This document shows positions 1 to 33,449 of a stretch of DNA of 64,000 nt, piece after piece (position 1 is the first letter of the stretch; each line of letters opens with the position of its first letter). The notes beneath the pieces were generated by a model, which had not been told where the DNA came from, ran no database searches, and saw only the letters and a list, made by a program, of their open reading frames with translations. Both the position numbers and the translations under genes were made by a program. The stretch is from a virus (taxonomy: Duplodnaviria > Heunggongvirae > Uroviricota > Caudoviricetes). Location: the IMG/VR virus record IMGVR_UViG_3300032116_012976. The stretch is one strand, 5' to 3'.

Positions 1-612
1 TATGTCAAGCAGTTGTGCGACGGGCGCATAGAACACTTCATGCAGTACGTGAGTTTAGACGGCTGGGGCTCACAAGCAGAATACATGCGTCACGGTATGG
101 ACTTCAATTTACTATGGGACAGGGTAAATCAATTTCTAACAGAAGTACCCAGCTACAACAGTCTAACGTTTATTGTGACCATGAACAATCTATCAGTAAC
201 CAGCTTGGAAAACCTGTTTGCTGGCATTCTAGGTCTGCGTAAAACCTATAGCAAAACCTATCAACGTGTGTGGTTTGATACACCTGTACTACGCGAACCG
301 GCTTGGCAGAGTTTGCAAATACTGCCAGAAAGCTATGCTGAACGACTGGAATATCTCTGGGCGTGGATGATACGTTGGACAGAAACTGCCGAAGATCCAT
401 TCCACGGATTCAAAGACTACGAACTTGCTAGACTGGACAGAGACATTGCATGGATGCGAGCAGGCCAAGGACAAGATCATTCCGCAGCAAAGGCAGACTT
501 TTATAGATTCTTTCGAGAACACGATCGCCGCAGAGGCACTGACTTTTTAAAGACCTTTCCAGAAATGAAAAGCTGGTGGGCAGAATGTGCATATCATGCT
601 AGGAACACATAA
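1..612 (+). CDS. C-terminal part of a radical-SAM-family paralog (5' end outside window)
   Basis: Frame is open from base 1. Tail FYRFFREHDRRRGTDFLKTFPEMKSWW aligns by eye with the tail of ORF 1686..3017 (FKQFHTQYDQRRNKDFGTAFPNLQAWY). Confidence 0.5.
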   Translation, partial: YVKQLCDGRIEHFMQYVSLDGWGSQAEYMRHGMDFNLLWDRVNQFLTEVPSYNSLTFIVTMNNLSVTSLENLFAGILGLRKTYSKTYQRVWFDTPVLREPAWQSLQILPESYAERLEYLWAWMIRWTETAEDPFHGFKDYELARLDRDIAWMRAGQGQDHSAAKADFYRFFREHDRRRGTDFLKTFPEMKSWWAECAYHARNT

Positions 613-1699
613 GCTCATAGTAGACGAATGGGCCGAAGTCTGGGACTTGCTCAAGCCATATGCTGACAGCAGTTTTTGGCAGTTGCCCAGCTTGGATCCT
701 GCCAATGTGTATGTTGTTGGCCGTGTGATATTGAAAGACAACTGGCAGACAATAACTGACTGGGCCACTCAGCACCCTGGACGCATTGTGTTCTCCAACC
801 CTGCAGAAGGATCAGAAACCATACTGCTACAGCTCAAGCGACTGCGCATTGCTGACTTGGTCCAAGACGGGCGCATAGGACTGTTGACGTCTGGGGATTT
901 AGAACCAGGGTGGAGCTATTGTAAAACAGACTGTTACTTTTCAAACATAGTGGAATACACAGAAAACAAATCGGCGCAACTACAAGCTGACATGGATTCA
1001 AAAGCGCATCGCCCATATGATTTTCTTTTTTTAAATGGCCGCCTGCGCCCACATCGCAAAGCACTGATAGACGGCCTGCGTGAAAATCAGCTGTTGGATC
1101 ATGCATTATGGACCAACCTGGGCAGTTCTGTTGAAATGGCATTTACTTCTGCACTGCAAACCAATCAGCTTGAGCCTATTAGACTGTTGCCCCCAGAATA
1201 TGAAATTGAACGTGCTGTACCCAACATGGAATCAGCGTATGCACACAGTTTTTGCAAGCATCATTTGTTTGGCAATACCTGGGGCGATGCCATTGTTAAT
1301 CCTGCTTGCTACACAAGCACATGGTTCTCAGTGGTAACAGAAACCATATTTGATTACCCGCACACATTTAGAACAGAAAAGATATGGAAGCCCATATTAA
1401 TGGCACACCCATTTGTGGCAGCTGCCAACAGGGGTTACTTGCGAGACTTGCGCAACGCAGGATTCCGCACGTTCCACAACTACATCGACGAATCCTACGA
1501 CCAAATTGATTGTCCAAGCAAGCGAATAGATAGTATAATAGCAACAATTGGCGAGATCTGTCAGAACGGTGCTGCTGAATTCTGGACAGCCGCCCAGGAT
1601 ATCTGTAAATATAATCAACAGCACCTAGTGGAGCACAATCAATTGGAACGTGCCCAACTCCCCATCAATTTAGAAAAGTATTTAGATGAACGATCTTGA
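587..1699 (+). CDS. putative glycosyltransferase, fucosyltransferase (GT10)-like 'TEK-motif' family, paralog 1 of 6
   Basis: C-terminal block VVTETIFDYPHTFRTEKIWKPILMAHPFV...GFRTFHNYIDESYD recurs in ORFs 5478, 13420, 14594, 55318 and 58621. It resembles the E-x(n)-[ST]EK motif of alpha-1,3-fucosyltransferases. Start 587 or 596 is ambiguous. Confidence 0.5.
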   Translation: MHIMLGTHKLIVDEWAEVWDLLKPYADSSFWQLPSLDPANVYVVGRVILKDNWQTITDWATQHPGRIVFSNPAEGSETILLQLKRLRIADLVQDGRIGLLTSGDLEPGWSYCKTDCYFSNIVEYTENKSAQLQADMDSKAHRPYDFLFLNGRLRPHRKALIDGLRENQLLDHALWTNLGSSVEMAFTSALQTNQLEPIRLLPPEYEIERAVPNMESAYAHSFCKHHLFGNTWGDAIVNPACYTSTWFSVVTETIFDYPHTFRTEKIWKPILMAHPFVAAANRGYLRDLRNAGFRTFHNYIDESYDQIDCPSKRIDSIIATIGEICQNGAAEFWTAAQDICKYNQQHLVEHNQLERAQLPINLEKYLDERS

Positions 1700-3017
1700 G
1701 TTCCGTCAGCAAGTATTAGACCCTCTCTCAGCCAGCTTTTGTGCGGCAAAATGGTATAACGCAACCATTTGGTTAGGAAGTGGACAGACCACAAGTTGTC
1801 ATCACCCGCCAGCTCATTTGATCGACAAAGATAAAGTCAGCATCAACCCTAGGCTACTGCACAATACTGATCAAAAGAAGGCAGATCGCCAACAAATGAT
1901 CAACGGGGAGCGTCCCCCTGGCTGTGAGTACTGTTGGAAAATAGAAGACATGGGTCGCAATGCCATTTCAGACCGTGTGTATAAGAGTAAGATATATCCC
2001 ATAGAGGCATTACATGAAGCTAGAAATACACCATACACTGAAGACGTCAACCTCCGTACACTTGAGATCGCTTTTGATCGCACTTGTCAGTTTGCTTGTA
2101 GCTATTGTAATCCAGCTTTCAGTTCAACATGGGTTAAAGACATCCGACGCAACGGAGCTTACCAGAACTTGGTCAGTGATGGTCGCAACCATTTTACCCA
2201 TGATCATGCTAACGCACAACTTTGGGATTATGGAGAACACAATCCTTACATTGATGCATTTTTTAAGTGGTGGGAGTCGGATCTGCATCGCACACTGCAA
2301 GAGCTCCGTATCACAGGAGGAGAGCCCCTCATGTCTGGTCACACATGGAAGCTCATTGACTGGTTTCGAACAAATTCAGGCAAGAGTTCAACACGCCTGG
2401 CTATCAACAGTAACCTAGGCACAGACGTAGACATTGACCGCTTGCTAGATGCAACGCAAAACATGGCAATTGACATATACACTTCAAACGAAGCTGTGGG
2501 TGTGCAAGCAGAGTACATACGCGACGGGTTGGTCTGGGCGGACTGGATGAACAATGTCAACCGCTTGTTAAGTTCCAAGCAGTTCCGTAGCATACATGTG
2601 ATGTGTACCATCAATGCCCTGTGCCTAGACAGCTTGGATCAATTGCTAGAGTGCATAGTGAAATGGAAGCTGGAGTATGGGCGTGATGCTATATCATTCA
2701 CACTAAACATCTTGCGTTTTCCCAGCTTTCAAAGTCCGTTGATACTGCCTGCGGAGTTGAAAACACACTACAAAACAGTGTTGGAAACTTGGCTCACAAA
2801 TCACAGCCACAGTGAATACCTGCACGAACACGAAATCAATCATTTACAAAGATTGATTGATTACCTGGATGTGGTGAAAACACCGCATTCAGACACATTT
2901 GAAATGCCCAAGCTATTGAATGATTTCAAACAATTCCACACACAGTATGACCAGCGTCGCAACAAAGACTTTGGCACAGCGTTCCCAAATCTGCAGGCCT
3001 GGTATAATTCACTATAA
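1686..3017 (+). CDS. radical SAM enzyme (type A)
   Basis: CxxxCxxC motif CQFACSYC, GGEPLM motif, N-terminal Cys-rich FCAAKW...SCHHPP. Overlaps the upstream ORF. Confidence 0.85.
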   Translation: MNDLEFRQQVLDPLSASFCAAKWYNATIWLGSGQTTSCHHPPAHLIDKDKVSINPRLLHNTDQKKADRQQMINGERPPGCEYCWKIEDMGRNAISDRVYKSKIYPIEALHEARNTPYTEDVNLRTLEIAFDRTCQFACSYCNPAFSSTWVKDIRRNGAYQNLVSDGRNHFTHDHANAQLWDYGEHNPYIDAFFKWWESDLHRTLQELRITGGEPLMSGHTWKLIDWFRTNSGKSSTRLAINSNLGTDVDIDRLLDATQNMAIDIYTSNEAVGVQAEYIRDGLVWADWMNNVNRLLSSKQFRSIHVMCTINALCLDSLDQLLECIVKWKLEYGRDAISFTLNILRFPSFQSPLILPAELKTHYKTVLETWLTNHSHSEYLHEHEINHLQRLIDYLDVVKTPHSDTFEMPKLLNDFKQFHTQYDQRRNKDFGTAFPNLQAWYNSL

Positions 3018-3038
3018 TTCACTATAATGTCATATAAT
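3003..3038 (+). repeat. 10-nt tandem duplication TATAATTCAC x2 plus two further TATAAT hexamers across a stop/start junction
   Basis: Direct reading: tataattcac tataattcac tataatg tca tataat. Contains the stop of ORF 1686 and the ATG of ORF 3027. Confidence 0.8.
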
Positions 3039-4286
3039 TACAACTCTACAGATCTAGTAAGACCCACAGAATTAACTGAGCGTGAGGAATTCTTACTAAA
3101 AGATTCAAAGACATTTTGCATTTATCCCTGGATCCATTTGCACGCCTATCCCACAGGCGAGGCATATCCCTGCTGTCATGCTGAAATGAAGCCAGGCATA
3201 GTAGGCAACTGTAGAACAAATACCTTAGAAGAAATATGGCAGGATGCACCCATGCAGAAGCTACGTGCAGACATGCTGAGCGAAACGCCACACGCTGCCT
3301 GCACACGTTGTTATGAGCAGGAAGAATCAGGATTCTTTTCAGGCCGTAAGAGTGCCAACAAACATCACGGACATCACATAAAGAAGCTGGATCAAAATCC
3401 TTTTGAAATGACCTACTGGGACATTCGTTTCTCAAACTTGTGCAATCTAAAATGCCGTAGCTGCGGATACATATTCAGCTCACAATGGTATCAGGATCAA
3501 GCCAAACTTGCTGGCGGCGACTGGAAAGCCCGCAACACAGTGCTAAACTATGCAGGGCGTACTGAAACTGACATGTGGGAACAATTAAAGCCTCATTTGG
3601 ACTATGTGGAACAGATCTACTTTGCTGGCGGTGAACCCTTGCTTATGGCGGAACACTACAATATTCTAGACGAGCTGGTGCGAAGAAAACGCTTTGACGT
3701 TAGACTCATATACAACACCAACTTCACACACACGGATCTCAAGGGTCGTTCAGTATTTGAATACTGGCGCCAGTTCGATTCAGTTGCTGTGGGTGCCAGC
3801 CTGGATGCGTCGGGCGCACGTGGGGAATACATTAGAAAAGGCACAGACTGGGCCGTAGTAGAACAGAACAGACGTGATATGTTGCGTGTGTGCCCTGAAG
3901 TGGATTTTTACATTTCACCTACCTTGAGCATAATGAATGCCTGGCACCTGCCTGATTTCCACCGTGACTGGGTGGAAAAAGGCCTGATCCGCGCACAGGA
4001 TTTAAATATAAATATCCTACAAGATCCTGCGCACTATAGAATAGACATTGCCACAGCCGAATACAAACACTCACTCACAGCACTGTATCAAAATCATATC
4101 CATTGGCTTAAAGGTCAGGACCCGCTAAATCGTGCCACACAAGGCTTTGAATCAGCCATTACCTTTATGATGGCCACAGACAACACACACTTGATAGATA
4201 CATTCTGGCGCAAAACAAATGAACTAGATTCAATAAGAAATGAATCAATATTGGATATAATTCCAGAATTGGCGGCACTAAAATGA
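3027..4286 (+). CDS. radical SAM enzyme (type B, SPASM/twitch-like)
   Basis: N-terminal FCIYPWIHL...PCC motif, CNLKCRSCG cluster motif, AGGEPLL. Confidence 0.85.
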   Translation: MSYNYNSTDLVRPTELTEREEFLLKDSKTFCIYPWIHLHAYPTGEAYPCCHAEMKPGIVGNCRTNTLEEIWQDAPMQKLRADMLSETPHAACTRCYEQEESGFFSGRKSANKHHGHHIKKLDQNPFEMTYWDIRFSNLCNLKCRSCGYIFSSQWYQDQAKLAGGDWKARNTVLNYAGRTETDMWEQLKPHLDYVEQIYFAGGEPLLMAEHYNILDELVRRKRFDVRLIYNTNFTHTDLKGRSVFEYWRQFDSVAVGASLDASGARGEYIRKGTDWAVVEQNRRDMLRVCPEVDFYISPTLSIMNAWHLPDFHRDWVEKGLIRAQDLNINILQDPAHYRIDIATAEYKHSLTALYQNHIHWLKGQDPLNRATQGFESAITFMMATDNTHLIDTFWRKTNELDSIRNESILDIIPELAALK

Positions 4287-5500
4287 ATATTCCACACGAT
4301 CAATTTTGCGTATTGCCCTGGGTGAGTTTAGAAGCCTCTCCCATTGGCACTGTACGCCCATGTTGTCTGGCAGATGATGAACTGACGGATGACTCTGGCA
4401 CAAAGTTCTCGCTATTGAATGCTAACTTTGCTGACATACAAAACTCACGTGCAATGACACGCCTGCGTGAACAGTTTCTTGCAGGCGAAAAGCCACAGAC
4501 CTGCCGCAAGTGCTGGATGGAAGAACGTGCTGGCCGCACATCAAAACGCATGCACACCTTGGACAGAATGAAACACATGGGCATATCAGGAGAATGGACC
4601 ACTGACGCCAAGCCGCTGATGTTCCTGGATTTGAAGCTGGGCAACATCTGCAATTTAAAATGTCGTATATGCGGATCATGGTCATCAAGCCAATTTGCCA
4701 CAGAAGAATTAAATGACATGCATCCAGATGACGATAAGAAAAAGACATTTCCCTATCAGATGCTGCGAGCAGGTGCGTGGCCCAGGGAAAATCAATCATT
4801 TTGGACAGAAATTGATGCCTGTTTAAATGACATACGCTACATTGAATTTACAGGTGGCGAGCCATTCATGATTGATCAGCACTTTGACATGTTGCAGGGC
4901 ATTGTGGATCGCGGAATTGCACATCAAGTGGAAATACACTACAACACAAATGGCACACAATGGCCTGCTCGCGGCCCGGACATCTGGCGCCATTTTAAAA
5001 CAGTAGAAGTGGCGTTCTCAATAGATGATGTGGGTGAACGCTTTGAATATCAACGCACCAATGCAGACTGGGCATTGGTGCTGGACACAATCACAAGTTT
5101 TCAATATCTTAGAGATCAACTGCCCAACCTGCGTTTACAATGCTGTAGTACCGTGAATGTGTTTAATGTGCGGTACATTGATCAACTAGCACACTGGATA
5201 GCACTGCAACGCTTTGACTTTGTGTACTGGAACATGATGCATGATGCCTGGTACTTTTCAATTGCCACACTGCCTGACACAGCCAAAGCTGCTGTCACAG
5301 AACACCTACGTTCAGCAGATGTGCCCGCACAATATCGTGAGGAGTTTGATAGAATCACAGACTTTATGAATGGGGGTGCGTCAACGGACGGCTTTATGTT
5401 GCGAATGAAAGTACGTGATTTAGATCGCAAAAGAAAACAAAATTTACGTGATGTAGCGCCAGAATTTGCTGAAATAATTGGGTATGACTATGACCAGTAA
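4283..5500 (+). CDS. radical SAM enzyme (type B paralog)
   Basis: FCVLPWVSL...RPCC, CNLKCRICG, TGGEPFM. ATGA overlap with the upstream ORF. Confidence 0.85.
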   Translation: MNIPHDQFCVLPWVSLEASPIGTVRPCCLADDELTDDSGTKFSLLNANFADIQNSRAMTRLREQFLAGEKPQTCRKCWMEERAGRTSKRMHTLDRMKHMGISGEWTTDAKPLMFLDLKLGNICNLKCRICGSWSSSQFATEELNDMHPDDDKKKTFPYQMLRAGAWPRENQSFWTEIDACLNDIRYIEFTGGEPFMIDQHFDMLQGIVDRGIAHQVEIHYNTNGTQWPARGPDIWRHFKTVEVAFSIDDVGERFEYQRTNADWALVLDTITSFQYLRDQLPNLRLQCCSTVNVFNVRYIDQLAHWIALQRFDFVYWNMMHDAWYFSIATLPDTAKAAVTEHLRSADVPAQYREEFDRITDFMNGGASTDGFMLRMKVRDLDRKRKQNLRDVAPEFAEIIGYDYDQ

Positions 5501-6497
5501 TCTGGTATTGATGCACGACACCAGACTGGTTCCTGCCAATTTGTCAAGGCATTTTCCTGTGGACTATGAGTTTTTTGATCCTGGCAAAACATATCCCAGC
5601 AACACAGTTTTTGTTTATGATCATTATCTCAGTGAAATTGCAGTCAAACAGCATCTTGACAGTCATCTGCAAGCTGGCTACAGAGTAATATACGACAACA
5701 AAAATGAACATTGGTTTACCACTGACCAATGGTGGATTGTTGAGCTGCTACAAAAATATCCACAACAACACCTTTTGTTTAGTTTGGGATCACAGCCTGG
5801 CGCATTGCCTGGACTCAGAGTGCAGGCTGTGCCTGCTTGGATATGGCTGCGTTGCCGAGACTATTGGGAAAAATTGAACTATCACAATATTGCATATACT
5901 CCAACTGCACGGTATAAAACATTGTGTATGATCAACTACACACGACCCTGGCGAGACCTGGTGTGGCAAGCATTGAATCCCATGGAGGCAGATGTGATGC
6001 GTAGTTATTTGTCCCAGGGGATCAGCATGCCCGACGATGTTACAGGTGATGGACACTTGTGGCAGGTAAATCCACGTTGGTTTCATATTTCTGCAATGAG
6101 CTTGGTGTGCGAAAGTTCAATTGGTGCTGTTTCTGGAGAAATTTCAGTCACTGCACCGTCAGGTGTGTTTGTGAGCGAAAAAAGTCTAAAGCCCATGGCC
6201 ATGCAACATCCATTTATTGTGGTAGCAACCCCGGGTACCCTAGCAGAGATACAGAGTTTTGGATTTGAAACATTCCCAGAGTTATGGGACGAAAGCTACG
6301 ATTCAATTGTGGACTTTGGTCAGCGATTAAACGTCATTATGCAACAAGTGCAACAGTTTGATACAGCACAATTAAACCAGCTGGTAGTGCAACAAAAACT
6401 CCAACACAATCAGCACAGGATTTTTGATCCTGCGGTAACACAGCAATTGCTACAGCAACAGGTGTTGGATCCCATATTAGAATTTTTAAATGAATAA
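5478..6497 (+). CDS. putative glycosyltransferase, GT10-like TEK-motif family, paralog 2
   Basis: LVCESS...VFVSEKSLKPMAMQHPFIVVATPGTLAEIQSFGFETFPELWDESYD. Confidence 0.5.
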   Translation: MGMTMTSNLVLMHDTRLVPANLSRHFPVDYEFFDPGKTYPSNTVFVYDHYLSEIAVKQHLDSHLQAGYRVIYDNKNEHWFTTDQWWIVELLQKYPQQHLLFSLGSQPGALPGLRVQAVPAWIWLRCRDYWEKLNYHNIAYTPTARYKTLCMINYTRPWRDLVWQALNPMEADVMRSYLSQGISMPDDVTGDGHLWQVNPRWFHISAMSLVCESSIGAVSGEISVTAPSGVFVSEKSLKPMAMQHPFIVVATPGTLAEIQSFGFETFPELWDESYDSIVDFGQRLNVIMQQVQQFDTAQLNQLVVQQKLQHNQHRIFDPAVTQQLLQQQVLDPILEFLNE

Positions 6498-7779
6498 ACC
6501 TGATACCATGTGCCTGGCACCTTGGGTGCATACCTATCTAAGCCCGCAAACTGAACGGCGCATGTGCTGTGCGTCACGCGAGCCTGCACAGAATTTTCGG
6601 CAGTACATAGACACTGAGTCAGGTACTGGTCAGTATATTCCTGTCACACTTGAAGAACATTGGAATTCAAATCACATGCGATCAGTGCGTCGCAGAATGA
6701 TGGCCGGAGAAACTTTACCTGAATGCGAAGTATGCAATGACCGACTCCTTAACACTAGCGTTTACCGCACCTACTTCGATCATTTATTTCAGCACAAACT
6801 GCCAGAAGTATACGCTAACACACAGCCCGATGGCACTACGACTATGGAACCTGTTTCATGGGATTATAGGTTCTCAAACTTATGTAACTTCAAATGCAGA
6901 ACCTGCGGAGATATGCTTTCAAGTGCCTGGGAGAGTGAACAAAAACAGAACAACATGGTCAACTGGGCTGATCCTAAAAACAATTGGATGCGAGACAGTA
7001 TACGTGACAGCATCTCCCAATTTCAGGATAGTCAAATTGAAGCCGAATTTGCTGCCGCCGTTGAACAACATCGTGTAGAAGAAATCTACTGGGTGGGCGG
7101 AGAGCCGCTAATGTACGAACAGCATTGGCGCCACATGAAAAGAATTGTTGAACTAGGAGATGGACCACGTGTTTATGCTAGATATAATACTAATCTCAGC
7201 CGTGTGCGTTACGGCGGTGTGGATCTATTTGATGATATCCTGGCGCACATTCGCGATTGGCAAATATGTGCTTCCCTGGATGGAACTGAGCAGATCGGGG
7301 AATATATTCGTACAGGATTGGATTATGCACAGTTCTGTCGTAATTTTGAACACGGACTCAAATACGCTACCAACCCTAGACAGATGCGTCTTGACTTTAC
7401 CCTCACACTGCCCGGCATGTTCGAGACTGGCGCAATGGAAAAGTTATCACAGACGTATGGGGTACAATTGTTAGCCAAAGTGATATTCAGCTTTAGTCCA
7501 GACATTGTTATGAGTCCACTTGCGCTGCCCAGACACTTGTTGGATCCATGGGTTGACGAACTAGCAGGCCGCTCCGCAGGTGACATGCGTGATGTACTGC
7601 TACAATTAAAGAACCGTCCATGCTTTGAGGAACAATGGCCGGATACATATCGCGCAGGACTTGCAAAAGGCAAAGCTCGTGTGTTACAATTAGAAAGCAT
7701 ACGCACACAGAAGATTACTATGGCAGAAATACTTGCTCAAAGACCAGCAGTGCTAGAATGGTGGAATAAAATTGCTTGA
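6490..7779 (+). CDS. radical SAM enzyme (type B paralog)
   Basis: MCLAPWVHT...RMCC, CNFKCRTCG, VGGEPLM. Confidence 0.85.
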   Translation: MNKPDTMCLAPWVHTYLSPQTERRMCCASREPAQNFRQYIDTESGTGQYIPVTLEEHWNSNHMRSVRRRMMAGETLPECEVCNDRLLNTSVYRTYFDHLFQHKLPEVYANTQPDGTTTMEPVSWDYRFSNLCNFKCRTCGDMLSSAWESEQKQNNMVNWADPKNNWMRDSIRDSISQFQDSQIEAEFAAAVEQHRVEEIYWVGGEPLMYEQHWRHMKRIVELGDGPRVYARYNTNLSRVRYGGVDLFDDILAHIRDWQICASLDGTEQIGEYIRTGLDYAQFCRNFEHGLKYATNPRQMRLDFTLTLPGMFETGAMEKLSQTYGVQLLAKVIFSFSPDIVMSPLALPRHLLDPWVDELAGRSAGDMRDVLLQLKNRPCFEEQWPDTYRAGLAKGKARVLQLESIRTQKITMAEILAQRPAVLEWWNKIA

Positions 7780-8833
7780 TCACATTGAAATAGACCTACG
7801 CGGACAAAACAGCCTACTAACTGTGCATATAGATGTGGCGGACAACACACTAAGTCGCAAATGGCTAACCGCGCTAAATGACATCATTAGAACTGATCTT
7901 CATTTGGAAAAGAATTACTGTTGGATGGGATGGACTGAAAGTGAACGAAATGCACAATACCTTTGTGAGCAAATTAATGCTAGTATTGATCACATCAATC
8001 GAAGTGGTATTGGCTATTGTATTGATTGTGATGCTTATACTGTAGAGAATACCATTGAGCCAGGAATCATTGGCACCAATCTAATCATCGGTGGCGTGGT
8101 GCATGAAAAAATGAACAATCTACACAGGTATTTTGAAGACCTACAAGGGTGGTCAGGTGGCATTTCAAATTATTATACTCGTGCAGATCCTGCTACACGC
8201 TGGCACATACGTCAACTAAATCTCCTGTGTCATGAATATGAAAGTCTTGTATTGAGCATGCGCAAGGCTGTGCATGCCCCTGAATGGCGCAGACCCTCAC
8301 AGTTGATGTGTTGGCTTAATGCACCGCGTTTTGCACTAGAACCCGCGGACTATGAATTGTTTGGCGTAGAAACCATCAACAGAACTCTAGGCGGTGTTTA
8401 TTTGGGTGTAAATAAAGCAGTTGGCAAACATCACTGGGAGGTGTTCAATGATGAAGGTAGGGATTCGCGTGTTGGCGAGCTTGTTACTACAGGACTGCGT
8501 GCTCAAACTGAAGCCGCTGGCGACTTTGATATCGAATGGGCCCGTGACCCAGGAGCATATCACTGGCAAATCAAAAAGTTACAAGAATTCCGCGCCTGGC
8601 TATTGGACAATGGGTTTGATCCAGAGGACAAAAGTCTCACCATTGGTCACCCAAAGGTGGCACAAGTTGACGTGATGCGAACATTTGGAACAACGGATTA
8701 TGAAAAGATTTGGGCGCAGTTGGCTCAACATCTTGATGTGTTGAGCATACGTACCGGGTGGGGCGAAGCTACATACAACTATCGCTGGAGCGATCCAGAC
8801 TATCATGAACAGCAAATAAGGAGATTGAAATGA
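7772..8833 (+). CDS. hypothetical protein
   Basis: 353-aa ORF in operon context, overlapping its neighbours. No motif recognised. Confidence 0.6.
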   Translation: MLDHIEIDLRGQNSLLTVHIDVADNTLSRKWLTALNDIIRTDLHLEKNYCWMGWTESERNAQYLCEQINASIDHINRSGIGYCIDCDAYTVENTIEPGIIGTNLIIGGVVHEKMNNLHRYFEDLQGWSGGISNYYTRADPATRWHIRQLNLLCHEYESLVLSMRKAVHAPEWRRPSQLMCWLNAPRFALEPADYELFGVETINRTLGGVYLGVNKAVGKHHWEVFNDEGRDSRVGELVTTGLRAQTEAAGDFDIEWARDPGAYHWQIKKLQEFRAWLLDNGFDPEDKSLTIGHPKVAQVDVMRTFGTTDYEKIWAQLAQHLDVLSIRTGWGEATYNYRWSDPDYHEQQIRRLK

Positions 8834-8931
8834 ATTGGATTAGACAAATTTGGGATAGAATTACACTAGAGTATCGTTATCGTAAAAAACTAAAAGAGCT
8901 ACGCAAAAGAGATCCTTTTATCTACAAATGA
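8830..8931 (+). CDS. small basic protein (33 aa), below the ORF-track cutoff
   Basis: MNWIRQIWDRITLEYRYRKKLKELRKRDPFIYK. ATGA overlaps at both ends (8830-8833 and 8928-8931) fill an otherwise empty gap. Confidence 0.5.
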   Translation: MNWIRQIWDRITLEYRYRKKLKELRKRDPFIYK

Positions 8932-9575
8932 AAAATCAGTTACTCACAATAGGTGATAGCTTTACACATGGTGACGAATTGTCAGATGTGTATCAAGCCT
9001 GGCCCTATCGTCTGTCAGACAAACTAGGATACGAAGTCCACAATCTTGGACAGTCAGGGTGCAGTAACGCTAGTATTTTGCGTAGAACATTAGAAGAACT
9101 TGCGACCAATCATTATGATTTAGTTATTATAGGGTGGACTTATCCGGGTAGAATTGAATGGAAAGATGACATTGGCATAGCGTATGATTTATGGCCAGGT
9201 GTGCCCAACGATACTAAATTTTTTAAAGATCATCCTTGGAGAGTTGATTTTTTAAACTTTATAAGTCAACATCACAATTCTGCTTATCTATACCAACAGT
9301 ATCTGATACAAACAATTTTGTTGCAATCGTTTTGCCAAGTCAACAGCATTGATTATAGAATGTTAGATGTACAATGGCACAATTACTACAGAAAAGTTGG
9401 ATCAGAAATGCATGATAAGTTAGAAGCAAAAATAGATACAACAAAATTTATAGGTTGGCAAAAGTTTGGTATGAGAGAACTAGTGGCTGATTTACCAAAA
9501 GGTCCTCAAAATCATCCGCTAGAACAAGGACATGAGAGAATAGCAAATGAAATCGCAAAACATATTGGGAATTAG
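8928..9575 (+). CDS. SGNH/GDSL-family hydrolase
   Basis: N-terminal LLTIGDSFTHGDE (GDS block). C-terminal H in ...LEQGHERIANE. Confidence 0.6.
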   Translation: MKNQLLTIGDSFTHGDELSDVYQAWPYRLSDKLGYEVHNLGQSGCSNASILRRTLEELATNHYDLVIIGWTYPGRIEWKDDIGIAYDLWPGVPNDTKFFKDHPWRVDFLNFISQHHNSAYLYQQYLIQTILLQSFCQVNSIDYRMLDVQWHNYYRKVGSEMHDKLEAKIDTTKFIGWQKFGMRELVADLPKGPQNHPLEQGHERIANEIAKHIGN

Positions 9576-11037
9576 TGCAGGCTTTCATGACGCTGCCTTG
9601 ACCTTGTTAGACCAGCACGGCAAGATTGTGTTTGCCGGCCATTCAGAACGTTACAGCAAGCAAAAAAATGATGCTGATATTTCATCAGCCATGCTTGACG
9701 AAATTGACATGAGTCAGGTAGGTACCATTGCGTACTACGAACGTCCGTGGATGAAACAACTGCGTCAATGGTATGCAGGACAGGGTATTGAGTGGAACAA
9801 AGTAACCACAAGACAAATACTAGAGCAACAGCTTGGCGCTGACCAAGTCAATGGCAAACGCATTAAAAACTACAATCATCATTTGTGTCATGCTGCTGCT
9901 GGTTTTCAAACAAGCCCTTATCCCATAGCCACAGTGGTTGTGATAGATGCTGTGGGCGAATGGGACACAGTGTCAATCTGGGGAGCAATGTATGATAAAA
10001 ATCTTAAAGCAACGTATACTCGACTTTGGTCGCAGAGTTATCCACATTCAATTGGATTATTCTACAGTGCTATTACTAAGCGCATTGGCCTACACCCACT
10101 AGACGAAGAATACATCACCATGGGCATGGCCGGATGGGGAACACCTCGATGGACCGAAGTCATGCGTGATGTACTCGTGGACAATCCAGAACAACTGCGG
10201 TTTAGATCAAACTTACACACAGGACTTGATTCAAGTTTTTTAGATTGTGCAACCAATGAAGATATTGCTGCTTCGGCACAACAACTCACAGAGTATCTAA
10301 TACACCAAGTTATGACCAAGGCCAAAAACTTTGGGTGGAGTGACAACTTGGTTTACATGGGCGGAGTGGCGCTAAACTGTTTGGCCAATAGGAGGTTAGG
10401 TGAATACTTTGATAACATATGGATTATGCCTTGTCCTGGTGATGCTGGCAGTAGCCTGGGCGCCGCCGCTCTTGCACACGGCGGTTGTGTTCAGTGGACT
10501 AGTGCTAGTCTTGGCCATAATATACCTGGTGATTACCCTGTTTACAATGCCATGGCTGCTCTTCTCACTGATCGTATTGTGGGTGTGGCATCGGGCCGAG
10601 CAGAATTCGGACCCAGAGCCCTAGGCAATAGATCATTGCTAGCAGACCCCCGTGGCGCTGACATAAAAGACCAAGTGAATTCGATCAAACGCAGACAAAA
10701 ATTTAGACCTTTTGCCCCAGTTATTCTGGAGGAGTTGGCTGACGATTACTTTGATATGCCTCGTTGCTGGAGTGACAGTAGGTATATGCAAATTGTCGCT
10801 CGTTGCCGGCATCCTGACTTATTTCCCGCTGTTATTCATGTTGACGGCACTAGTCGTGTACAGACTGTGCCCCGCGACGGATCAGGCATAAGAAAGCTGT
10901 TGGAAGCATGGTACGCCGAGACAGGTTGCCCTATGTTGCTTAATACAAGTTTAAACATACGTGGGGAGCCAATGGTAAACGACAGAGCAGACGCAGACCG
11001 ATTTGAAACACTGTATGGTGTAAAGGTATGTTCATGA
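9547..11037 (+). CDS. carbamoyltransferase (NodU/CmcH family)
   Basis: ILGISAGFHDAALTLL, NHHLCHAAAGF, LNTSLNIRGEPMV are typical of O-carbamoyltransferases. Confidence 0.8.
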   Translation: MKSQNILGISAGFHDAALTLLDQHGKIVFAGHSERYSKQKNDADISSAMLDEIDMSQVGTIAYYERPWMKQLRQWYAGQGIEWNKVTTRQILEQQLGADQVNGKRIKNYNHHLCHAAAGFQTSPYPIATVVVIDAVGEWDTVSIWGAMYDKNLKATYTRLWSQSYPHSIGLFYSAITKRIGLHPLDEEYITMGMAGWGTPRWTEVMRDVLVDNPEQLRFRSNLHTGLDSSFLDCATNEDIAASAQQLTEYLIHQVMTKAKNFGWSDNLVYMGGVALNCLANRRLGEYFDNIWIMPCPGDAGSSLGAAALAHGGCVQWTSASLGHNIPGDYPVYNAMAALLTDRIVGVASGRAEFGPRALGNRSLLADPRGADIKDQVNSIKRRQKFRPFAPVILEELADDYFDMPRCWSDSRYMQIVARCRHPDLFPAVIHVDGTSRVQTVPRDGSGIRKLLEAWYAETGCPMLLNTSLNIRGEPMVNDRADADRFETLYGVKVCS

Positions 11038-11720
11038 TTATAATTATGGGCGATAGTTGGGGCGTGGGAGAATGGGGATCGGATAAAGATCGCAGTTGTT
11101 GTTTAACGGGTCCGGGAATAGGTCAATTGTTTTCTTTGCATGGCAAAGTAATAAATTTTAGTCAGGGCGGTGCTAATAATTTTGAACAACAACAGGAGTT
11201 TGAACGGTTGTTGGCAAAATTCAAACCAGATGACAATGATCAATTTTATTGGATAGTTACAGATCCTTTAAGAAATGTTGTACCTAGCACGTTACTAGAA
11301 ACTGCTTCAAGTATTGAATCTGCCGCACAAGAACTGTTAAATTTGTTTTTTAAAAATATTAATTTCATTGCAACTAGTCGCAATATAACCATTAGGTTAA
11401 TTGGAGGGCTCTGTGATCTTGAACCTATATCTTACAGCCATTTAAAAGTGGTTGTTCCAAGTTGGTGCAAAATGCTTAATGCAACTCATACATCATCAAT
11501 TTTTGTAGATGACACAATTAAAGAGCTTGCACCATATATTGCAGCGCATAGGCCTGATTTAAAACATGAATGGACAGAAATAGCCAAAACTGCATTGGAC
11601 AAAAGAAAAAGTGTTAAGTACTTAGAATCTTGTGGGCTAATAGTGGCAGACCATCCTTCAAGACAAGCGCACAGATTACTAAGAGATTATTTGTCACCGG
11701 GCAACGAAAATGTTTTTTAA
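11028..11720 (+). CDS. SGNH-like hydrolase (divergent)
   Basis: N-terminal IIIMGDSWGVGEWG. Confidence 0.45.
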   Translation: MFMIIIMGDSWGVGEWGSDKDRSCCLTGPGIGQLFSLHGKVINFSQGGANNFEQQQEFERLLAKFKPDDNDQFYWIVTDPLRNVVPSTLLETASSIESAAQELLNLFFKNINFIATSRNITIRLIGGLCDLEPISYSHLKVVVPSWCKMLNATHTSSIFVDDTIKELAPYIAAHRPDLKHEWTEIAKTALDKRKSVKYLESCGLIVADHPSRQAHRLLRDYLSPGNENVF

Positions 11721-11768: not shown

Positions 11769-11865
11769 GAGTTTGACCTTGCACATACGTGGTGAGCCCA
11801 TGGTCAACGATAGAGCAGATGCAGATAGATTTGAACGTGAGTATGGTGTCAAGGTCTGTTCATGA
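11769..11865 (+). pseudogene. duplicated 3'-end remnant of the carbamoyltransferase gene
   Basis: Translates ...LHIRGEPMVNDRADADRFEREYGVKVCS*, versus the true gene end LNIRGEPMVNDRADADRFETLYGVKVCS* at 10951..11037. It keeps the same gttcATGA junction to the next ORF and has no start codon. Confidence 0.75.
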
Positions 11866-12407
11866 ATGTGCATGCAATTCATTTGCCCAATCAGGCTCGA
11901 TGTTTTTTAATTGACAGCTTTTTCCCACAAAGTCATCTAGCCAGCATACATGAAATATGTGAGGCTTTCAGCAAAGAGTCTGTGGCCTGGCAGCATCCTG
12001 AGTGGACCACGTATCGTTACATATATCAAAACTGCTCACCTGAATGGCAGTCAGTTGTGGACTATCTAAAAGTTCCCAACCCAGAACTCACTCAAGCACT
12101 GGGCTATGCTGTGACATGTGATGAAGTGTTGTTATGGGCAGAGTTTCAAGGCATTGGAATATTGCAACCGCATGTTGAAATACCCGGCGGTAAAAATCTC
12201 AGTCAGTTGTATATTACCAAACAGCCAGTGCCCAATAACGGCACTACCATCTATACCGATCAAAAAGAAATATTATGCTTGTTGCCGTATCGTGACAACT
12301 TTGGATGGTTCTTTGATGACAGTGGTCGAGTCATGCATGGGCGTGACAATGACGTACCACCAGACATCATACGTTTTACCATGATGATGCACTGGTCTAA
12401 AGTGTAA
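11862..12407 (+). CDS. hypothetical protein
   Basis: 181-aa ORF starting at the ATGA junction of the remnant. Confidence 0.55.
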   Translation: MNVHAIHLPNQARCFLIDSFFPQSHLASIHEICEAFSKESVAWQHPEWTTYRYIYQNCSPEWQSVVDYLKVPNPELTQALGYAVTCDEVLLWAEFQGIGILQPHVEIPGGKNLSQLYITKQPVPNNGTTIYTDQKEILCLLPYRDNFGWFFDDSGRVMHGRDNDVPPDIIRFTMMMHWSKV

Positions 12408-13448
12408 TTACAGATAAGTTTCTAAACCGCCACGACGGCGGATATCCTGTGTGCAACAAGATATACCGCCGTCCCAGAAGTAGCTGTGACGCAACTCACA
12501 TATAATGGGTTCAATCCCATGCTTCCTACAGTAATCAAAAACTTCTTTGTTGTACGCACTAAAGATCACGTGCGATTCATCTAACACAAGACAGTTGACA
12601 TCAAACACAGTTTCGGCCACAAAGCCAGTCCATTTGGTCAGATAAGTGTTCACAAAGTCTGTGAACTCAGGTGTGGGTGTTTGGCCTTGCACATACCATG
12701 CGCCAGGTGATTGTTCGTACTTGAACTTGCCCACTTCCATAGCGGCCCAGATTGAACTGTCCCAGATCTTACATACGTCCCAGCCAGGAAAGTCTTTGGC
12801 TAGATCCAAGTTAACATCGTGCTTGCTGGACAGTAACACACCGGGTTTGAGAATAGCAAACACAGCATCACCGTGTCCATCTGTAACAGCTTCGTGTATG
12901 CGATACTCTGGACCTAGGCAATTGTCCACAATCCAACGAGTTTGATCAGGACGCAAAAAGTCTGAGTTGTCAAAGAACACATCACGCCCCACACGCACAA
13001 TACAACTTGCACTTGCACCATTTAGTATGCAATCTGGATCCCAGGCGCTTTTGTGTGGGTTAATGACTGCATCTCCGTAGCCTCGGCAAACGTTATCCAG
13101 TTCAGGCATGGCCAACACACGCAACAATTTGCCGCCCAAGGTGATTTGCCAGTCGCGTGGTGTGAGTGGCGGCAGCGGAGCACCTCCTCCTTCAGTTTGG
13201 AACCATACAAATTGATCTTTTGCAGGTAGATCTGGACGACGAACTTGAGCTCCAAACTGCTCAATGGTCTTGGACAAGTTAGCAAGATCTTCTTCAGTTT
13301 CATGGAGAATCTGTTGCAGTTGATTGCGCACTTGTGGATTGTCTATGAAATCAAAGTAGTCAGGCGAGTAAGCACGACCCACAATTACTTCTTCAAGTGG
13401 TTGCCAGCTGGTGTAGGAGTTAACGATATTGCTCATGTATTTTCTCAA
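12408..13448 (-). CDS. amidinotransferase (glycine / inosamine-phosphate amidinotransferase family)
   Basis: N-terminal WQPLEEVIVG. C-terminal active-site block FWDGGISCCTQDIRRRG matches the GG-x-HC-x-T-x-D-x-RRRG signature of AGAT/StrB1-type enzymes. Confidence 0.75.
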   Translation of the reverse strand: MRKYMSNIVNSYTSWQPLEEVIVGRAYSPDYFDFIDNPQVRNQLQQILHETEEDLANLSKTIEQFGAQVRRPDLPAKDQFVWFQTEGGGAPLPPLTPRDWQITLGGKLLRVLAMPELDNVCRGYGDAVINPHKSAWDPDCILNGASASCIVRVGRDVFFDNSDFLRPDQTRWIVDNCLGPEYRIHEAVTDGHGDAVFAILKPGVLLSSKHDVNLDLAKDFPGWDVCKIWDSSIWAAMEVGKFKYEQSPGAWYVQGQTPTPEFTDFVNTYLTKWTGFVAETVFDVNCLVLDESHVIFSAYNKEVFDYCRKHGIEPIICELRHSYFWDGGISCCTQDIRRRGGLETYL

Positions 13449-14610
13449 TCAAGCTATTTAAACGCTTGCTCTTGTTGGCAACAAATAATTGCTGGTTGTG
13501 TTCTATGTCTGCTCTGGCAGCTTCGAACAACTGCGGTAACCTGGGTTGAGCGGCTGCTATGCTGTCACGCAAGCTCTCCCAACGCTGTGTGTGGTTTGCA
13601 ATTTTATCGTAACTGTTATCCAGTATGCCATCAAACACACGATAGCCCAGATCACGCAACACTTGCAAACTACCAGCACCACCGCCCACAAAAAACAACT
13701 GCCCGTGTTTGATAGGTTTGAATGTTTTTTCTGTAACAAATGCACCATTTGACTGATCCACATCAAATTGACTTTCCAACACTATGTTACAGTATGCGTT
13801 TGCAAAATATTTTGGTTCCATTACAGAATGATTGTTGCGATCGCTATCACTTAGTTCATCGCTGATGTAAGGTGCCTGATCCAGGAACCGTTTGCGATCA
13901 TAACGCAGCTGACTGATCATATCTACTTCTATTGGGCAGTCGGTATCTTCACCGTAAGGTTCTTCACAATAACTCCAATAACTGTTGCTCAGTATACCAG
14001 AGCGATGCAGGTCTGCCATGGCAGTGGCCCGCCACCATTTGTGCAGTCTGCTCAAACAAGTAAAATCTCGTTCTCGTGGCAAGTTGTGAATTTCTAAAGG
14101 CGCACTGTTGATGTTGCGCTGATAATACCACAGTTCAAAGTCGTGAAATGTAACAAAGCCGGGCAACTGGTCTGCGGATGTATTACTGCTGACAAATATA
14201 TAACAGTCTGGTGGCAACAGGTGTTGTTCGGCTAATGCGTCCAGTCTGTTTTTGATTCGTCTAGGACTGTCACCTTCGTGGTACATGAACAACACACGTA
14301 ACTCACTGCGGTGCAGTTTTTTTCTTACAGCAACTGTCATTAATTCAAAGTAGTCAATGTCAAAGTCAAAGAATCCCAAGCAAACAGGATAGTATGTGTT
14401 GGCTGGCAAGCTGTGGTCGATGTTGTGAACTGTTAAATCAATACCATGTTGACCACAGTATTCTTGTATTCGCACAGGAGTAGTGTATGGCCAGTGCTCG
14501 CCAAACTGTCTCCAGCCGGGAGTGTAAGGTCTAGCTTCGTGCCGTGCCAGGGCAGGATATATTTTACCTTTGATGGTTTGATCAGCAACAAGATTAAGTT
14601 TGTAATTCAT
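13420..14610 (-). CDS. putative glycosyltransferase, GT10-like TEK-motif family, paralog 3
   Basis: NIVLESQFDVDQSNGAFVTEKTFKPIKHGQLFFVGG...LGYRVFDGILDNSYD. Confidence 0.5.
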   Translation of the reverse strand: MNYKLNLVADQTIKGKIYPALARHEARPYTPGWRQFGEHWPYTTPVRIQEYCGQHGIDLTVHNIDHSLPANTYYPVCLGFFDFDIDYFELMTVAVRKKLHRSELRVLFMYHEGDSPRRIKNRLDALAEQHLLPPDCYIFVSSNTSADQLPGFVTFHDFELWYYQRNINSAPLEIHNLPRERDFTCLSRLHKWWRATAMADLHRSGILSNSYWSYCEEPYGEDTDCPIEVDMISQLRYDRKRFLDQAPYISDELSDSDRNNHSVMEPKYFANAYCNIVLESQFDVDQSNGAFVTEKTFKPIKHGQLFFVGGGAGSLQVLRDLGYRVFDGILDNSYDKIANHTQRWESLRDSIAAAQPRLPQLFEAARADIEHNQQLFVANKSKRLNSLIEKIHEQYR

Positions 14611-15790
14611 ACAACATGTTTTGTAGTTCAGGCCAAAGTATGCTAGTCAATCCGCCTTGGTAAAAATGATGAAAGTTGTGTTCTACTAAGGGCACACATG
14701 CACGATGAATTTGCTCACGTTCTTTCAACGACAAACTGTCAAGGTCCTTGAGTAATTTTACTACCTTTTCCACACGCAGTTGATCATCGGTTTCTTGGTC
14801 GTAACTTTCGTCAAACACAGAATCAAATGTTTTGAAACCATAACTGCGCATGTATTCCAAACTGCCAGCAGGCGCCATCAACACAAACGGCATTTCTAAT
14901 GCAATGGCCTTGAATGTTTTTTCAGTAATGTGCAATCGACGTCCAAAATAAACTGTTTCAGTTGGCACATACACAAGAGAATCCTGCGCTTCTGTAAAAT
15001 TGGTAAGCCAACAGCTGGCCATCTGTTGAGTTTCTTCGCCAGCAAACAGTCTAGGCAATTCAGCAGTTCGAAACACTTGCTCAATGTCTGGATATATGTT
15101 ATTATACTTCTTAGCAATGTCAACAATGTCAACATTTTCATACACACAGACTCGTGGAGCTGAAATGTGATTGTGTTCCAATTGCTGTTTGAACACATGA
15201 TACAAAAACAACACTCGATGATCACGTTTGCCAGCAACAATCCGATTGGGACTCATGAACGTTTTGGTAGGAGCACGATCACGTGCTCTAGGAATCAAAA
15301 AAGACTTATCGTATCCACGAAACCAATCTTGACAGGCCCATCCATGATAAAAATAGTAATGACTTTTCCAGCCATATATATCACACAACTGTTCAACTTG
15401 TTCTCCATGCTCGCTAACAATAACATGTCCTTGTGATGTTTTTATTTGTTTGTTTTTAATAATGTTTGCTAAATTTAGATCAGTATAATTTGCAATTAAA
15501 AAATCAGCCATGTTAATGTAGTTGCTGTCAGGATCGTTAAGTCTGTACACAACATCAGCCATGCGATCTAACACTTCGTTAAACAATCCTCCATGTGCAT
15601 CTAAATGAACTGGTTCTTGATCATGAAAAAATATATAATCTTCTTCCTCGATGCCATCATACCCAAAATTCAACAATGCGTTGGGGCTGGTATCACCAGG
15701 TGGATCACAAAAGAACATGCGTGTGCCAGGAACATTTTGCTTGATCCAAGGCCAAAATGTATTGTTGTAAATTTCGTCTATTCTAATCAT
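14594..15790 (-). CDS. putative glycosyltransferase, GT10-like TEK-motif family, paralog 4
   Basis: VYVPTETVYFGRRLHITEKTFKAIALEMPFVLMAPAGSLEYMRSYGFKTFDSVFDESYD. Its start codon shares the CATG at 15788-15791 with the divergent ORF. Confidence 0.5.
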   Translation of the reverse strand: MIRIDEIYNNTFWPWIKQNVPGTRMFFCDPPGDTSPNALLNFGYDGIEEEDYIFFHDQEPVHLDAHGGLFNEVLDRMADVVYRLNDPDSNYINMADFLIANYTDLNLANIIKNKQIKTSQGHVIVSEHGEQVEQLCDIYGWKSHYYFYHGWACQDWFRGYDKSFLIPRARDRAPTKTFMSPNRIVAGKRDHRVLFLYHVFKQQLEHNHISAPRVCVYENVDIVDIAKKYNNIYPDIEQVFRTAELPRLFAGEETQQMASCWLTNFTEAQDSLVYVPTETVYFGRRLHITEKTFKAIALEMPFVLMAPAGSLEYMRSYGFKTFDSVFDESYDQETDDQLRVEKVVKLLKDLDSLSLKEREQIHRACVPLVEHNFHHFYQGGLTSILWPELQNMLYELQT

Positions 15791-21355: not shown

Positions 21356-21651
21356 TTGTTTCTCCACTTCATTTGATACCACATATAGACTCGTTCGTCC
21401 ATTATGGTAAAGTTGCCTGCTCTACTGTAGTCCCAAAAACGCCCATTGATATATTGTCCTGGATAGCCATAAGTTTCGATCAACCAACGCTCTTGCTCTA
21501 TAGTATGCACACCTTTGTGTTTGTACAGTGTCATTGGCACAAACTTTTCACCATCCCATACCTGCTTGCGCACCGGAGGTGGGAGAACTATATCTGACTC
21601 GTCGGCATATTCTATTACTGGTTGCCACCCCATTTGAGCCTCCAGAAACAT
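21352..21651 (-). CDS. hypothetical protein
   Basis: 99-aa ORF, coupled to the downstream gene. Confidence 0.5.
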   Translation of the reverse strand: MFLEAQMGWQPVIEYADESDIVLPPPVRKQVWDGEKFVPMTLYKHKGVHTIEQERWLIETYGYPGQYINGRFWDYSRAGNFTIMDERVYMWYQMKWRNK

Positions 21652-33438: not shown

Positions 33439-33449
33439 GTGCCTCCTTT

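Follow-up and report, generated by a model that had tools for sequence, protein, structure and literature searches.

Five radical-SAM paralogs and a carbamoyltransferase in a conserved operon of an uncultured jumbo phage

The operon and its radical-SAM enzymes

The window analysed here is a stretch of 64,000 nucleotides from the IMG/VR virus record IMGVR_UViG_3300032116_012976 (Caudoviricetes). Its first 8,931 positions hold part of an operon in which genes for five paralogous radical S-adenosylmethionine (radical-SAM) enzymes lie among two genes for glycosyltransferase-like proteins, here called the TEK family, and two open reading frames (ORFs) of other kinds. The five enzymes belong to a single family and, together with a protein without family assignment (U8) and a carbamoyltransferase (CT), make up a unit that recurs in fixed order in related viral loci. 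The original prediction, made from the sequence alone, had described the radical-SAM, glycosyltransferase-like and remaining ORFs as tightly coupled, and the ORF map agrees, every ORF being found where it had been placed: all lie on the plus strand, and the junctions are overlaps of 4–26 nt or, in one case, a 9-nt gap. The region belongs to a long operon of co-directional genes which extends beyond positions 1–8931 both ways, being cut by the window edge on the left and reaching at least 11720 or 12407 on the right. At least seven operon genes precede R1 in a relative of 353 kb (L001, 1–5623); the start of the operon lies outside the window. One of these upstream genes specifies a further Radical_SAM protein of a different family, for which a PDB sequence search gave nothing useful. 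The co-directional genes are:

1–612, plus strand: o1 (R1), partial ORF, its 5' part cut by the window edge
587–1699, plus strand: o2 (G2), TEK-family glycosyltransferase-like protein of predicted GT-B fold, accessory
1686–3017, plus strand: o3 (R3), N-terminal-twitch radical-SAM enzyme, type A
3027–4286, plus strand: o4 (R4), N-terminal-twitch radical-SAM enzyme, type B
4283–5500, plus strand: o5 (R5), N-terminal-twitch radical-SAM enzyme, type B
5478–6497, plus strand: o6 (G6), second TEK-family glycosyltransferase-like protein, accessory, present in only some relatives
6490–7779, plus strand: o7 (R7), N-terminal-twitch radical-SAM enzyme, type B
7772–8833, plus strand: o8 (U8), conserved protein without family, following R7 in most related loci
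8830–8931, plus strand: 33-aa ORF, MNWIRQIWDRITLEYRYRKKLKELRKRDPFIYK, probably SxtK-like, carbamoyltransferase-associated, without membrane helix
8928–9575, plus strand: S9, SGNH/GDSL-type hydrolase or acyl-handling enzyme (DUF6071)
9547–11037, plus strand: CT (o10), NodU/CmcH-family O-carbamoyltransferase (Pfam)
11028–11720, plus strand: o11, N-terminal GDS motif, possible SGNH protein, overlapping the CT stop
11862–12407, plus strand: o12, last co-directional gene, no family match

The source of this DNA is an uncultured jumbo phage. Besides members of several PHROG families, the window encodes 31 tRNAs and a tmRNA, and a megablast search of positions 1–9000 against cultured phages gave no match. 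At least 80 related viral contigs, the longest of 347 kb, are present in IMG/VR, and the metagenomic relatives of R4 number 7788 proteins (best 94% identity) on contigs of up to approximately 353 kb. Two contigs attributed to a ‘Haliscomenobacter sp.’ metagenome-assembled genome, or MAG (L004 and L005; NZ_JBBAKG010000001.1 and ...003.1; 183 and 148 kb), bear the phage module at 82–84% identity. They are probably phage DNA which was binned with the bacterium, and possibly this binning is a hint at the host.

The original prediction counted five radical-SAM paralogs in the operon and a sixth at 40403, and all six match NF033640 (NCBIfam N_Twi_rSAM, “twitch domain-containing radical SAM protein”). 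The curated cutoff of 170 bits is passed by the four complete ORFs of the operon (R3, 297; R4, 387; R5, 329; R7, 281 bits; E 1e-83 to 1e-115) and by ORF 40403 (198.7 bits). R1 falls below it (98.8 bits, E 4e-28) since, being cut by the window edge, it covers model positions 230–397, that is, the C-terminal half. The proposed division into type A (R1, R3) and type B (R4, R5, R7) was upheld by BLAST among the paralogs: R1 and R3 share 26.5% identity (E 1e-14), R4, R5 and R7 are mutually 27–28% identical (E 1e-22 to 1e-37), and the two types stand at 21–23% (E 1e-8 to 1e-10). ORF 40403 is placed with type B. Of the two motifs thought to mark type B, CN(L/F)KCR(S/I/T)CG is present as described, and FC..PW...PCC is found in R4 and R5 while R7 reads MC..PW...MCC.

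The catalytic motifs of radical-SAM enzymes are intact in all of the paralogs. Alignments A2 and A3 show the cluster motif CX3CX2C as CNLKCRSC, CNLKCRIC, CNFKCRTC, CQFACSYC and CNLSCLSC, and the SAM-binding GGE motif as GGEP or GGEF; R3 has CQFACSYC and GGEP. The Pfam model PF04055 scores 20.9–27.9 bits on R3, R4, R5 and R7, under its 29.5-bit cutoff, and 40.4 bits on ORF 40403, above it; a Pfam scan of the truncated R1 gave no match.

Pfam SPASM matches lie at residues 31–96 of R4 (45.8 bits), 9–78 of R5 and 8–83 of R7 (below cutoff). The twitch domain precedes the core, Radical_SAM being matched at 134–265 in R4 and at about 120–300 generally (Pfam). The auxiliary cysteines of R4 (C31-X12-G-X4-C49...C92-X2-C95) are likewise N-terminal to CX3CX2C and GGEP, and R3, which has no Pfam SPASM match, retains C...C-H...CxxC. 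The seven-cysteine SPASM pattern CX9-15GX4C...CX2CX5CX3C...C was not found; only four or five N-terminal cysteines are conserved, consistent with a twitch domain and its single auxiliary cluster. Each of the five orthogroups has the canonical CX3CX2C SAM cluster and, in the twitch domain at its N-terminus, a site for one auxiliary cluster.

R4 alone gave nothing useful in a PDB sequence search. Profile A2 recovered only remote matches to the core, and the nearest solved proteins include BlsE (E 2e-5), a radical-SAM enzyme annotated as cytosylglucuronate decarboxylase, that is, one with a nucleoside-sugar substrate. The original prediction had named as fatal to its proposal a placement of these proteins in a well-characterised family of known substrate. 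The family found is named, and the literature yielded neither a characterised member of NF033640 nor a paper on it; as far as our searches show it is a bioinformatic definition only, catalogued but uncharacterised.

Conserved core, carbamoyltransferase and bacterial relatives

Proteins of the window were mapped onto 84 related viral loci. The order in these is fixed as R1-(G2)-R3-R4-R5-(G6)-R7-U8-(S9)-CT, brackets marking the variable genes. Each radical-SAM orthogroup is 45–90% identical across loci, as against 21–28% between paralogs; full-length R1 orthologs in the same position share 53–92% identity and R3 orthologs 55–88%. Since the orthogroups are so much closer across loci than are the paralogs, the divergence of the five enzymes predates the radiation of this phage clade, and none of them has been lost. 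There are five radical-SAM genes in 38 loci, six in 32 and seven in 5. TEK genes number up to five per locus, with G6 variably present, and are absent from 18 of the 84. The alternation of radical-SAM and glycosyltransferase-like genes described in the original prediction is therefore present in this genome and not conserved: it is an accessory trait, and the fixed unit is composed of the five radical-SAM genes, U8 and the carbamoyltransferase.

U8 has no match in Pfam, NCBIfam or PHROG. Its AlphaFold2 model (pLDDT 74, from a shallow alignment) has no convincing neighbour in the PDB, and U8-like folds were found only in uncharacterised phage proteins, including one of jumbo Agrobacterium phage Atu_ph07. 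The invariant residues (H118, E122, C153-H154-E155, E157, K219, E223, D227-E228 and D253) include histidine, glutamate, aspartate and cysteine, which suggests that U8 is an enzyme.

Among cultured phages, tblastn with R4 gave remote matches only, to Ralstonia phage RsoM2USA, Vibrio phages K566 and K567, and one marine virus. Vibrio phage K566 (255 kb) has four clustered N-terminal-twitch radical-SAM genes at 161.5–168.3 kb (VPHK566_0303, 0305, 0306 and 0308), interleaved with genes of no assigned role; the 19-kb stretch examined holds no homolog of U8 or of the TEK proteins. The two Vibrio phages provide a cultured system for testing.

The carbamoyltransferase is syntenic in 65 of the related loci. 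Both of its domains score above the Pfam cutoffs (Carbam_trans_N, 132.6 bits; Carbam_trans_C, 165.6 bits), and it is not a NodU equivalog, scoring 139 bits with NCBIfam against a cutoff of 1000. Enzymes of the NodU/CmcH family carbamoylate hydroxyl groups, typically of sugars and also of other small molecules. The O-carbamoyltransferase of the saxitoxin pathway, SxtI, is accompanied by SxtJ and SxtK, small ORFs without assigned function (PMC2885083).

Every one of the 65 related loci with a carbamoyltransferase also has the 33-aa ORF. Loci without the carbamoyltransferase, those with all five radical-SAM genes included, lack the peptide as well, excepting three which end just after it. The C-terminal half of the peptide (...YRKKLKELRKRDPFIYK) is invariant, yet its codons vary synonymously, position 24 being encoded by five different Leu codons and position 29 by four Pro codons; the ORF is therefore a real gene under strong selection at the protein level. 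It is translationally coupled to both neighbours, and its conservation is far above that of the flanking enzymes.

Four Bacteroidota loci contain a 49-aa ORF (MDFLKDIWGFIKERKKYWLGPVII...SSVAPFIYSLF) which in three precedes genes for a 124-aa membrane protein and, next, a carbamoyltransferase; the fourth locus ends at a contig edge before any carbamoyltransferase. The phage peptide and these ORFs have in common an N-terminal M[ND][WF][IL][KR].IW..I and a C-terminal PFIY, at 24–30% identity overall, and the transmembrane helix of the bacterial ORFs is missing from the phage peptide. From the short terminal motifs and the position, the peptide is probably homologous to the SxtK-like small proteins.

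A selected peptide with an invariant half inside the core might be taken for the substrate of a pathway like those of peptides made by the ribosome and modified after translation (RiPPs), with the radical-SAM enzymes cross-linking, epimerising or otherwise altering either this peptide or a phage structural protein, for which o16, a repeat protein encoded downstream, would be a candidate. The Pfam SPASM matches point the same way, as do weak NCBIfam matches of the radical-SAM proteins to sactipeptide, ranthipeptide, mycofactocin and PqqE-type maturases; mycofactocin indeed combines a peptide, a radical-SAM enzyme and a glycosyltransferase in one pathway. We consider this route unlikely. The peptide follows the carbamoyltransferase and not the radical-SAM genes, and resembles the SxtK-like ORF in its position and terminal motifs; for these reasons the 33-aa ORF was down-weighted as a RiPP precursor. 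Neither an RRE or PqqD-like domain nor a peptidase was found in the module with Pfam and NCBIfam, the number of N-terminal cysteines departs from the SPASM pattern, and the partner to which these radical-SAM enzymes are fused in bacteria is a carbamoyltransferase.

That fusion came from a scan of bacteria (one genome per species, with an alignment of three paralogs) which gave over 400 relatives; 79 loci were retained. Arrays of several paralogs are common: 148 genes in 74 loci fall into the family-level BLAST cluster, which also took in a few carbamoyltransferases by way of the fusion protein. No TEK gene lies beside the radical-SAM family in 75 bacterial loci. A Bacteriovoracaceae MAG (L069) contains a 934-aa ORF with the Pfam domains Carbam_trans_N, Carbam_trans_C, SPASM and Radical_SAM in this order. 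The same pair was found in four metagenomic contigs (L165, L166, L167 and L173; 44–77% identity), fused as an open frame of 961 aa in L167 and separated in the other three by one in-frame stop codon (two contigs) or joined by an 11-nt overlap (one). Such fusion and coupling argues that carbamoyltransferases and NF033640-type radical-SAM enzymes work together. The single stop codon between the two genes, which share a frame, lies at 4716–4720 in L165 and 4722–4726 in L173; either readthrough of the stop codon or a recent splitting of the gene could explain this.

Radical-SAM arrays in Saprospiraceae, Crocinitomicaceae, Fluviicola and Chitinophagales lie inside large clusters. GDSL/SGNH proteins and PhyH dioxygenases are present there in many paralogs, beside a WelO5-like oxygenase, a methyltransferase, an ABC ATPase, an NAD epimerase, a UDP-Glc/GDP-Man dehydrogenase and a GT2 glycosyltransferase; several have a carbamoyltransferase with SxtJ/K-like genes. 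Six Bacteroidota loci (L015, L021, L047, L049, L052 and L059) have up to eight PhyH paralogs, several GDSL proteins (some exceeding 1000 aa), the WelO5-like oxygenase, ABC ATPase and methyltransferase, and one to three N-terminal-twitch radical-SAM genes, and look like an undescribed cluster type of their own.

Elsewhere the company is of another kind. The Paenibacillus locus L046 reads, with Pfam, acyl carrier protein (ACP)-radical-SAM-FabG-ketosynthase (KS)-KS-GT2-phosphopantetheinyl transferase-ABC, and points to an acyl or lipid substrate; a KS-like gene lies about 2 kb from the radical-SAM gene in Paenibacillus L065, and about 4 kb away in Eubacterium L053. Across its members the family probably acts on several substrates. 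Tailoring of a lipid or polyketide type, in which the phage enzymes would modify acyl chains or a glycolipid, might also be expected from the window's own desaturase, Asp/Asn-hydroxylase-like oxygenase and hexapeptide acyltransferase (28.8–31.1 kb) and its β-ketoacyl-ACP synthase (KAS) II-like gene at 44015, and the modification of lipids by radical-SAM enzymes is documented (PMC13459092). Those genes, however, are encoded on the other strand at a distance of 20–35 kb and show no synteny with the module in relatives, the conserved core has no ACP, KS or acyl-activating gene, the module proteins are all predicted to be soluble, and the carbamoyltransferase, GT-B and nucleotide-sugar genes suit a carbohydrate better. 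We judge a lipid substrate in the phage very unlikely.

TEK-family proteins and the proposed pathway

Beyond o12 the following genes bear on the argument:

12408–13448, minus strand: U13, conserved beside the module in relatives
13420–14610, minus strand: G14, TEK-family glycosyltransferase-like paralog
14594–15790, minus strand: G15, TEK-family glycosyltransferase-like paralog
15789–19388, plus strand: o16, 1199-aa tandem-repeat protein with a C-terminal domain
19360–20475, minus strand: DegT/PseC/WecE-type nucleotide-sugar 4-aminotransferase
20387–21382, minus strand: NAD-dependent sugar epimerase/4,6-dehydratase-like protein (SDR)
40403–41527, plus strand: sixth radical-SAM paralog, N-terminal-twitch, isolated inside the tRNA array

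G2 and G6 (587 and 5478) are paralogs, as had been claimed (BLAST E 1e-10), although the TEK motif for which the family was named is SEK in G6. BLAST and HMM searches added four members in the window (13420 and 14594 on the minus strand, 55318 and 58621), making six in total. The HMM A5 scores 184 bits on G6, 276 on G14 and 169 on G15, and G14 matches G2 with a BLAST E value of 2e-12. The more divergent members at 55318–56433 and 58621–59580 (plus strand; HMM E 7e-14 and 1e-18) are distant from the operon. At E <= 1e-3 the family counts 13,327 representatives of 50%-identity clusters, with the invariant residues R157, E252, E264, K265, D305 and R313 (o2 numbering).

No sequence match to these proteins was found in Pfam, NCBIfam, PHROG or the PDB, even with the profiles A1 and A5, and the PDB search with o2 alone likewise gave nothing useful. 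Not one of 56 members (52 family representatives and four of the window) matched a Pfam family, and tblastn against cultured phages gave no match. The AlphaFold model of o2 (pLDDT 65.5) has two Rossmann-like domains and superposes on GT-B glycosyltransferases, with figures of 12.3 for the GT4 enzyme WlaC, 12.2 for T4 alpha-glucosyltransferase, 10.5 for FUT9 and 9.7 for Helicobacter pylori FucT. At the level of the fold the model thus supports the TEK proteins as glycosyltransferase-like, with nucleotide-sugar-dependent transfer as their putative activity. The term “fucosyltransferase-like” used in the original prediction holds as to glycosyltransferase and not specifically as to fucosyl: GT10 ranks below GT4, and neither a Pfam Glyco_transf_10 match nor, with A1 and A5, a PDB sequence match was obtained.

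GT-B enzymes and radical-SAM enzymes might together decorate modified bases of the phage genome, in the manner of glucosyl-hydroxymethylcytosine or of thymidine hypermodification. Known phage pathways of thymidine hypermodification do include radical-SAM enzymes, and all of the proteins here would be cytoplasmic. Among the annotated ORFs, which cover part of the window, there is however no pyrimidine hydroxymethylase, dNMP kinase or base-exchange enzyme, and the surroundings of the bacterial homologs (ABC exporter, epimerase, UDP-sugar dehydrogenase) are not related to DNA. We see only a slim chance that DNA is the substrate.

The neighbourhood is carbohydrate-flavoured, with the carbamoyltransferase, the SGNH proteins, the DegT-type aminotransferase and the 4,6-dehydratase-like SDR. 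S9 scores 42.3 bits with Pfam DUF6071 and 31 bits with Lipase_GDSL_2; o11 and o12 have no family match in the Pfam, NCBIfam and PHROG scans. The aminotransferase matches Pfam DegT_DnrJ_EryC1 at 181 bits, its best NCBIfam models being PseC and dTDP-4-amino-4,6-dideoxyhexose transaminases, all under their equivalog cutoffs. The SDR matches Pfam Epimerase at 158 bits, and the best NCBIfam model, dTDP-glucose 4,6-dehydratase, at 125 bits, is again below cutoff. No transmembrane segment is predicted in any protein of the 21-kb island, and the chemistry would therefore be cytoplasmic.

We propose a cytoplasmic pathway in which radical chemistry, glycosylation and carbamoylation together tailor a substrate based on sugar, and give this proposal an even chance. 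Each of the five radical-SAM enzymes would carry out a distinct C-H activation, by way of the 5'-deoxyadenosyl radical, with a single sugar-based compound rich in hydroxyls, or intermediates of it, as the substrate and the candidate reactions being epimerisation, dehydration or deoxygenation, oxidation, and C-C coupling. The carbamoyltransferase would then cap a hydroxyl, the SGNH enzymes may handle O-acyl groups, and the TEK enzymes may attach or extend sugars supplied in part by the aminotransferase and the dehydratase-like enzyme encoded approximately 10 kb downstream. The product might be either a soluble metabolite derived from a sugar or a glycan attached to an acceptor in the cytoplasm, namely a virion protein or a precursor of the host envelope. 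The analysis shows the family memberships, the intact catalytic motifs, the GT-B fold, the synteny and the carbamoyltransferase gene fusion; the class of substrate we infer from the fusion and the neighbourhood, and the reaction of each enzyme and the place where the product ends up are likewise inferred. The stepwise radical modification of a glycan suggested in the original prediction is thereby supported in part, through the radical-SAM paralogy, the GT-B fold and the neighbouring genes.

Several observations weigh against a sugar substrate. Because no NF033640 member has a known substrate, the assignment is one of guilt by association, and most of the characterised SPASM/twitch relatives with weak HMM matches are peptide maturases. 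The GT-B assignment depends on a model of medium confidence (pLDDT 65.5), and the module can dispense with TEK genes, as the 18 loci devoid of them demonstrate. The immediate bacterial neighbours are heterogeneous (ChaN-like, PhoX, SDR, OmpA and others), with no single partner family in Pfam; two Bdellovibrionota loci (L009 and L068) have five to eight paralogs among housekeeping genes and no sugar gene within 10 kb, and the two Paenibacillus loci have theirs near ketosynthase-like genes.

Known systems and other genes of the window

Bacterial members of NF033640 share with the phage enzymes the twitch-first domain order and the arrays of several paralogs, whereas the phage set of five orthogroups with U8, peptide and carbamoyltransferase is absent from the 75 bacterial loci examined. 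BtrN, AprD4 and BlsE, from sugar and nucleoside-sugar pathways, are alike in having one auxiliary cluster domain beside the radical-SAM core. Their twitch domain, however, is C-terminal and not N-terminal, the similarity is confined to the SAM-binding core, and no 2-deoxy-scyllo-inosose synthase or other hallmark of their pathways was seen. Aminoglycoside-type gene sets likewise bring together DegT aminotransferases, GT-B enzymes and TobZ-type carbamoyltransferases. As in the saxitoxin SxtI-SxtJ-SxtK arrangement, a very small conserved ORF stands ahead of the carbamoyltransferase, and the Bacteroidota relatives have both the 49-aa SxtK-like and the 124-aa SxtJ-like membrane protein upstream of theirs; the phage differs in that its peptide is without a membrane helix and that an SxtJ-like gene and the rest of the saxitoxin pathway are absent. 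Unlike GT4 (WlaC/PglH) and GT10 alpha-1,3-fucosyltransferases, the TEK proteins have no Pfam or PDB sequence match, profiles included.

Virus glycosylation islands, such as those for the fibril glycans of giant viruses, the virions of mycobacteriophages and the LPS-type genes of cyanophages, bring their own nucleotide-sugar enzymes and cytoplasmic glycosyltransferases. We know of none that contains a series of radical-SAM enzymes. One marine T4-like environmental viral genome has 12 radical-SAM genes, which were counted with Fe-S metabolism in view (Nishimura et al. 2017, PMC5332604). It too is an uncultured large phage with an unusual number of such genes, and that paper assigns them to no family and describes neither a conserved module nor partner genes. 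The original prediction could name no described pathway of this composition, and our literature search also found none describing the family or the module. The module of five radical-SAM enzymes, U8, peptide and carbamoyltransferase, and its link to the bacterial fusion, thus appear to be undescribed. The module would be a case of virus-encoded tailoring of a glycan or metabolite, a kind already known, with a fair chance that the chemistry itself is new.

That NF033640 performs an undescribed radical chemistry on carbohydrates, which this clade of jumbo phages runs five steps in series with U8 and a carbamoyltransferase, we regard as doubtful. If it were true, the phage would make a heavily rearranged, carbamoylated sugar or glycan produced by no known cellular pathway, to be borne on the virion or the host envelope or released as a soluble effector, and a new virus-encoded biosynthetic pathway would be added. 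Radical-SAM reactions are among the hardest in biology, and a family of thousands with no assigned function is a clear gap; TEK is a second large uncharacterised group. The fixed series of five enzymes, in a clade of very large phages that is both abundant and diverse, suggests an elaborate tailoring pathway which giant phages run for themselves in the cytoplasm, and the carbamoyltransferase fusion gives a testable handle on the substrate of NF033640. Should the product be a virion or cell-surface glycan, it would bear on host recognition, superinfection exclusion and immune evasion.

U13 orthologs occupy the same place in many related loci (60–92% identity). O16 contains at least seven tandem repeats of about 65 aa with a DPPYIYVFGNQ-type motif (pattern W[DE]YSWVPDPGDPPYIYVFGNQW..AE.MPTVEY.VPGATE.KYMD); it has no family match, and a PDB sequence search with its C-terminal domain gave nothing useful. 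This domain (matches at residues 971–1193) flanks gene 349, the single R3-like radical-SAM gene of Ralstonia phage RsoM2USA, on both sides, which is a second independent association.

Further along the window, 28844–34608 encodes an Asp/Asn-hydroxylase-like oxygenase, a fatty-acid desaturase, a hexapeptide-repeat acyltransferase and two TauD-family dioxygenases, a group which suggests lipid or further small-molecule modification. Thirty tRNA genes and the tmRNA gene (tag ANDEKFLMAA) lie at 36479–49077, all on the minus strand, and the array encloses the radical-SAM paralog at 40403 and the KAS II-like gene at 44015, both on the plus strand.

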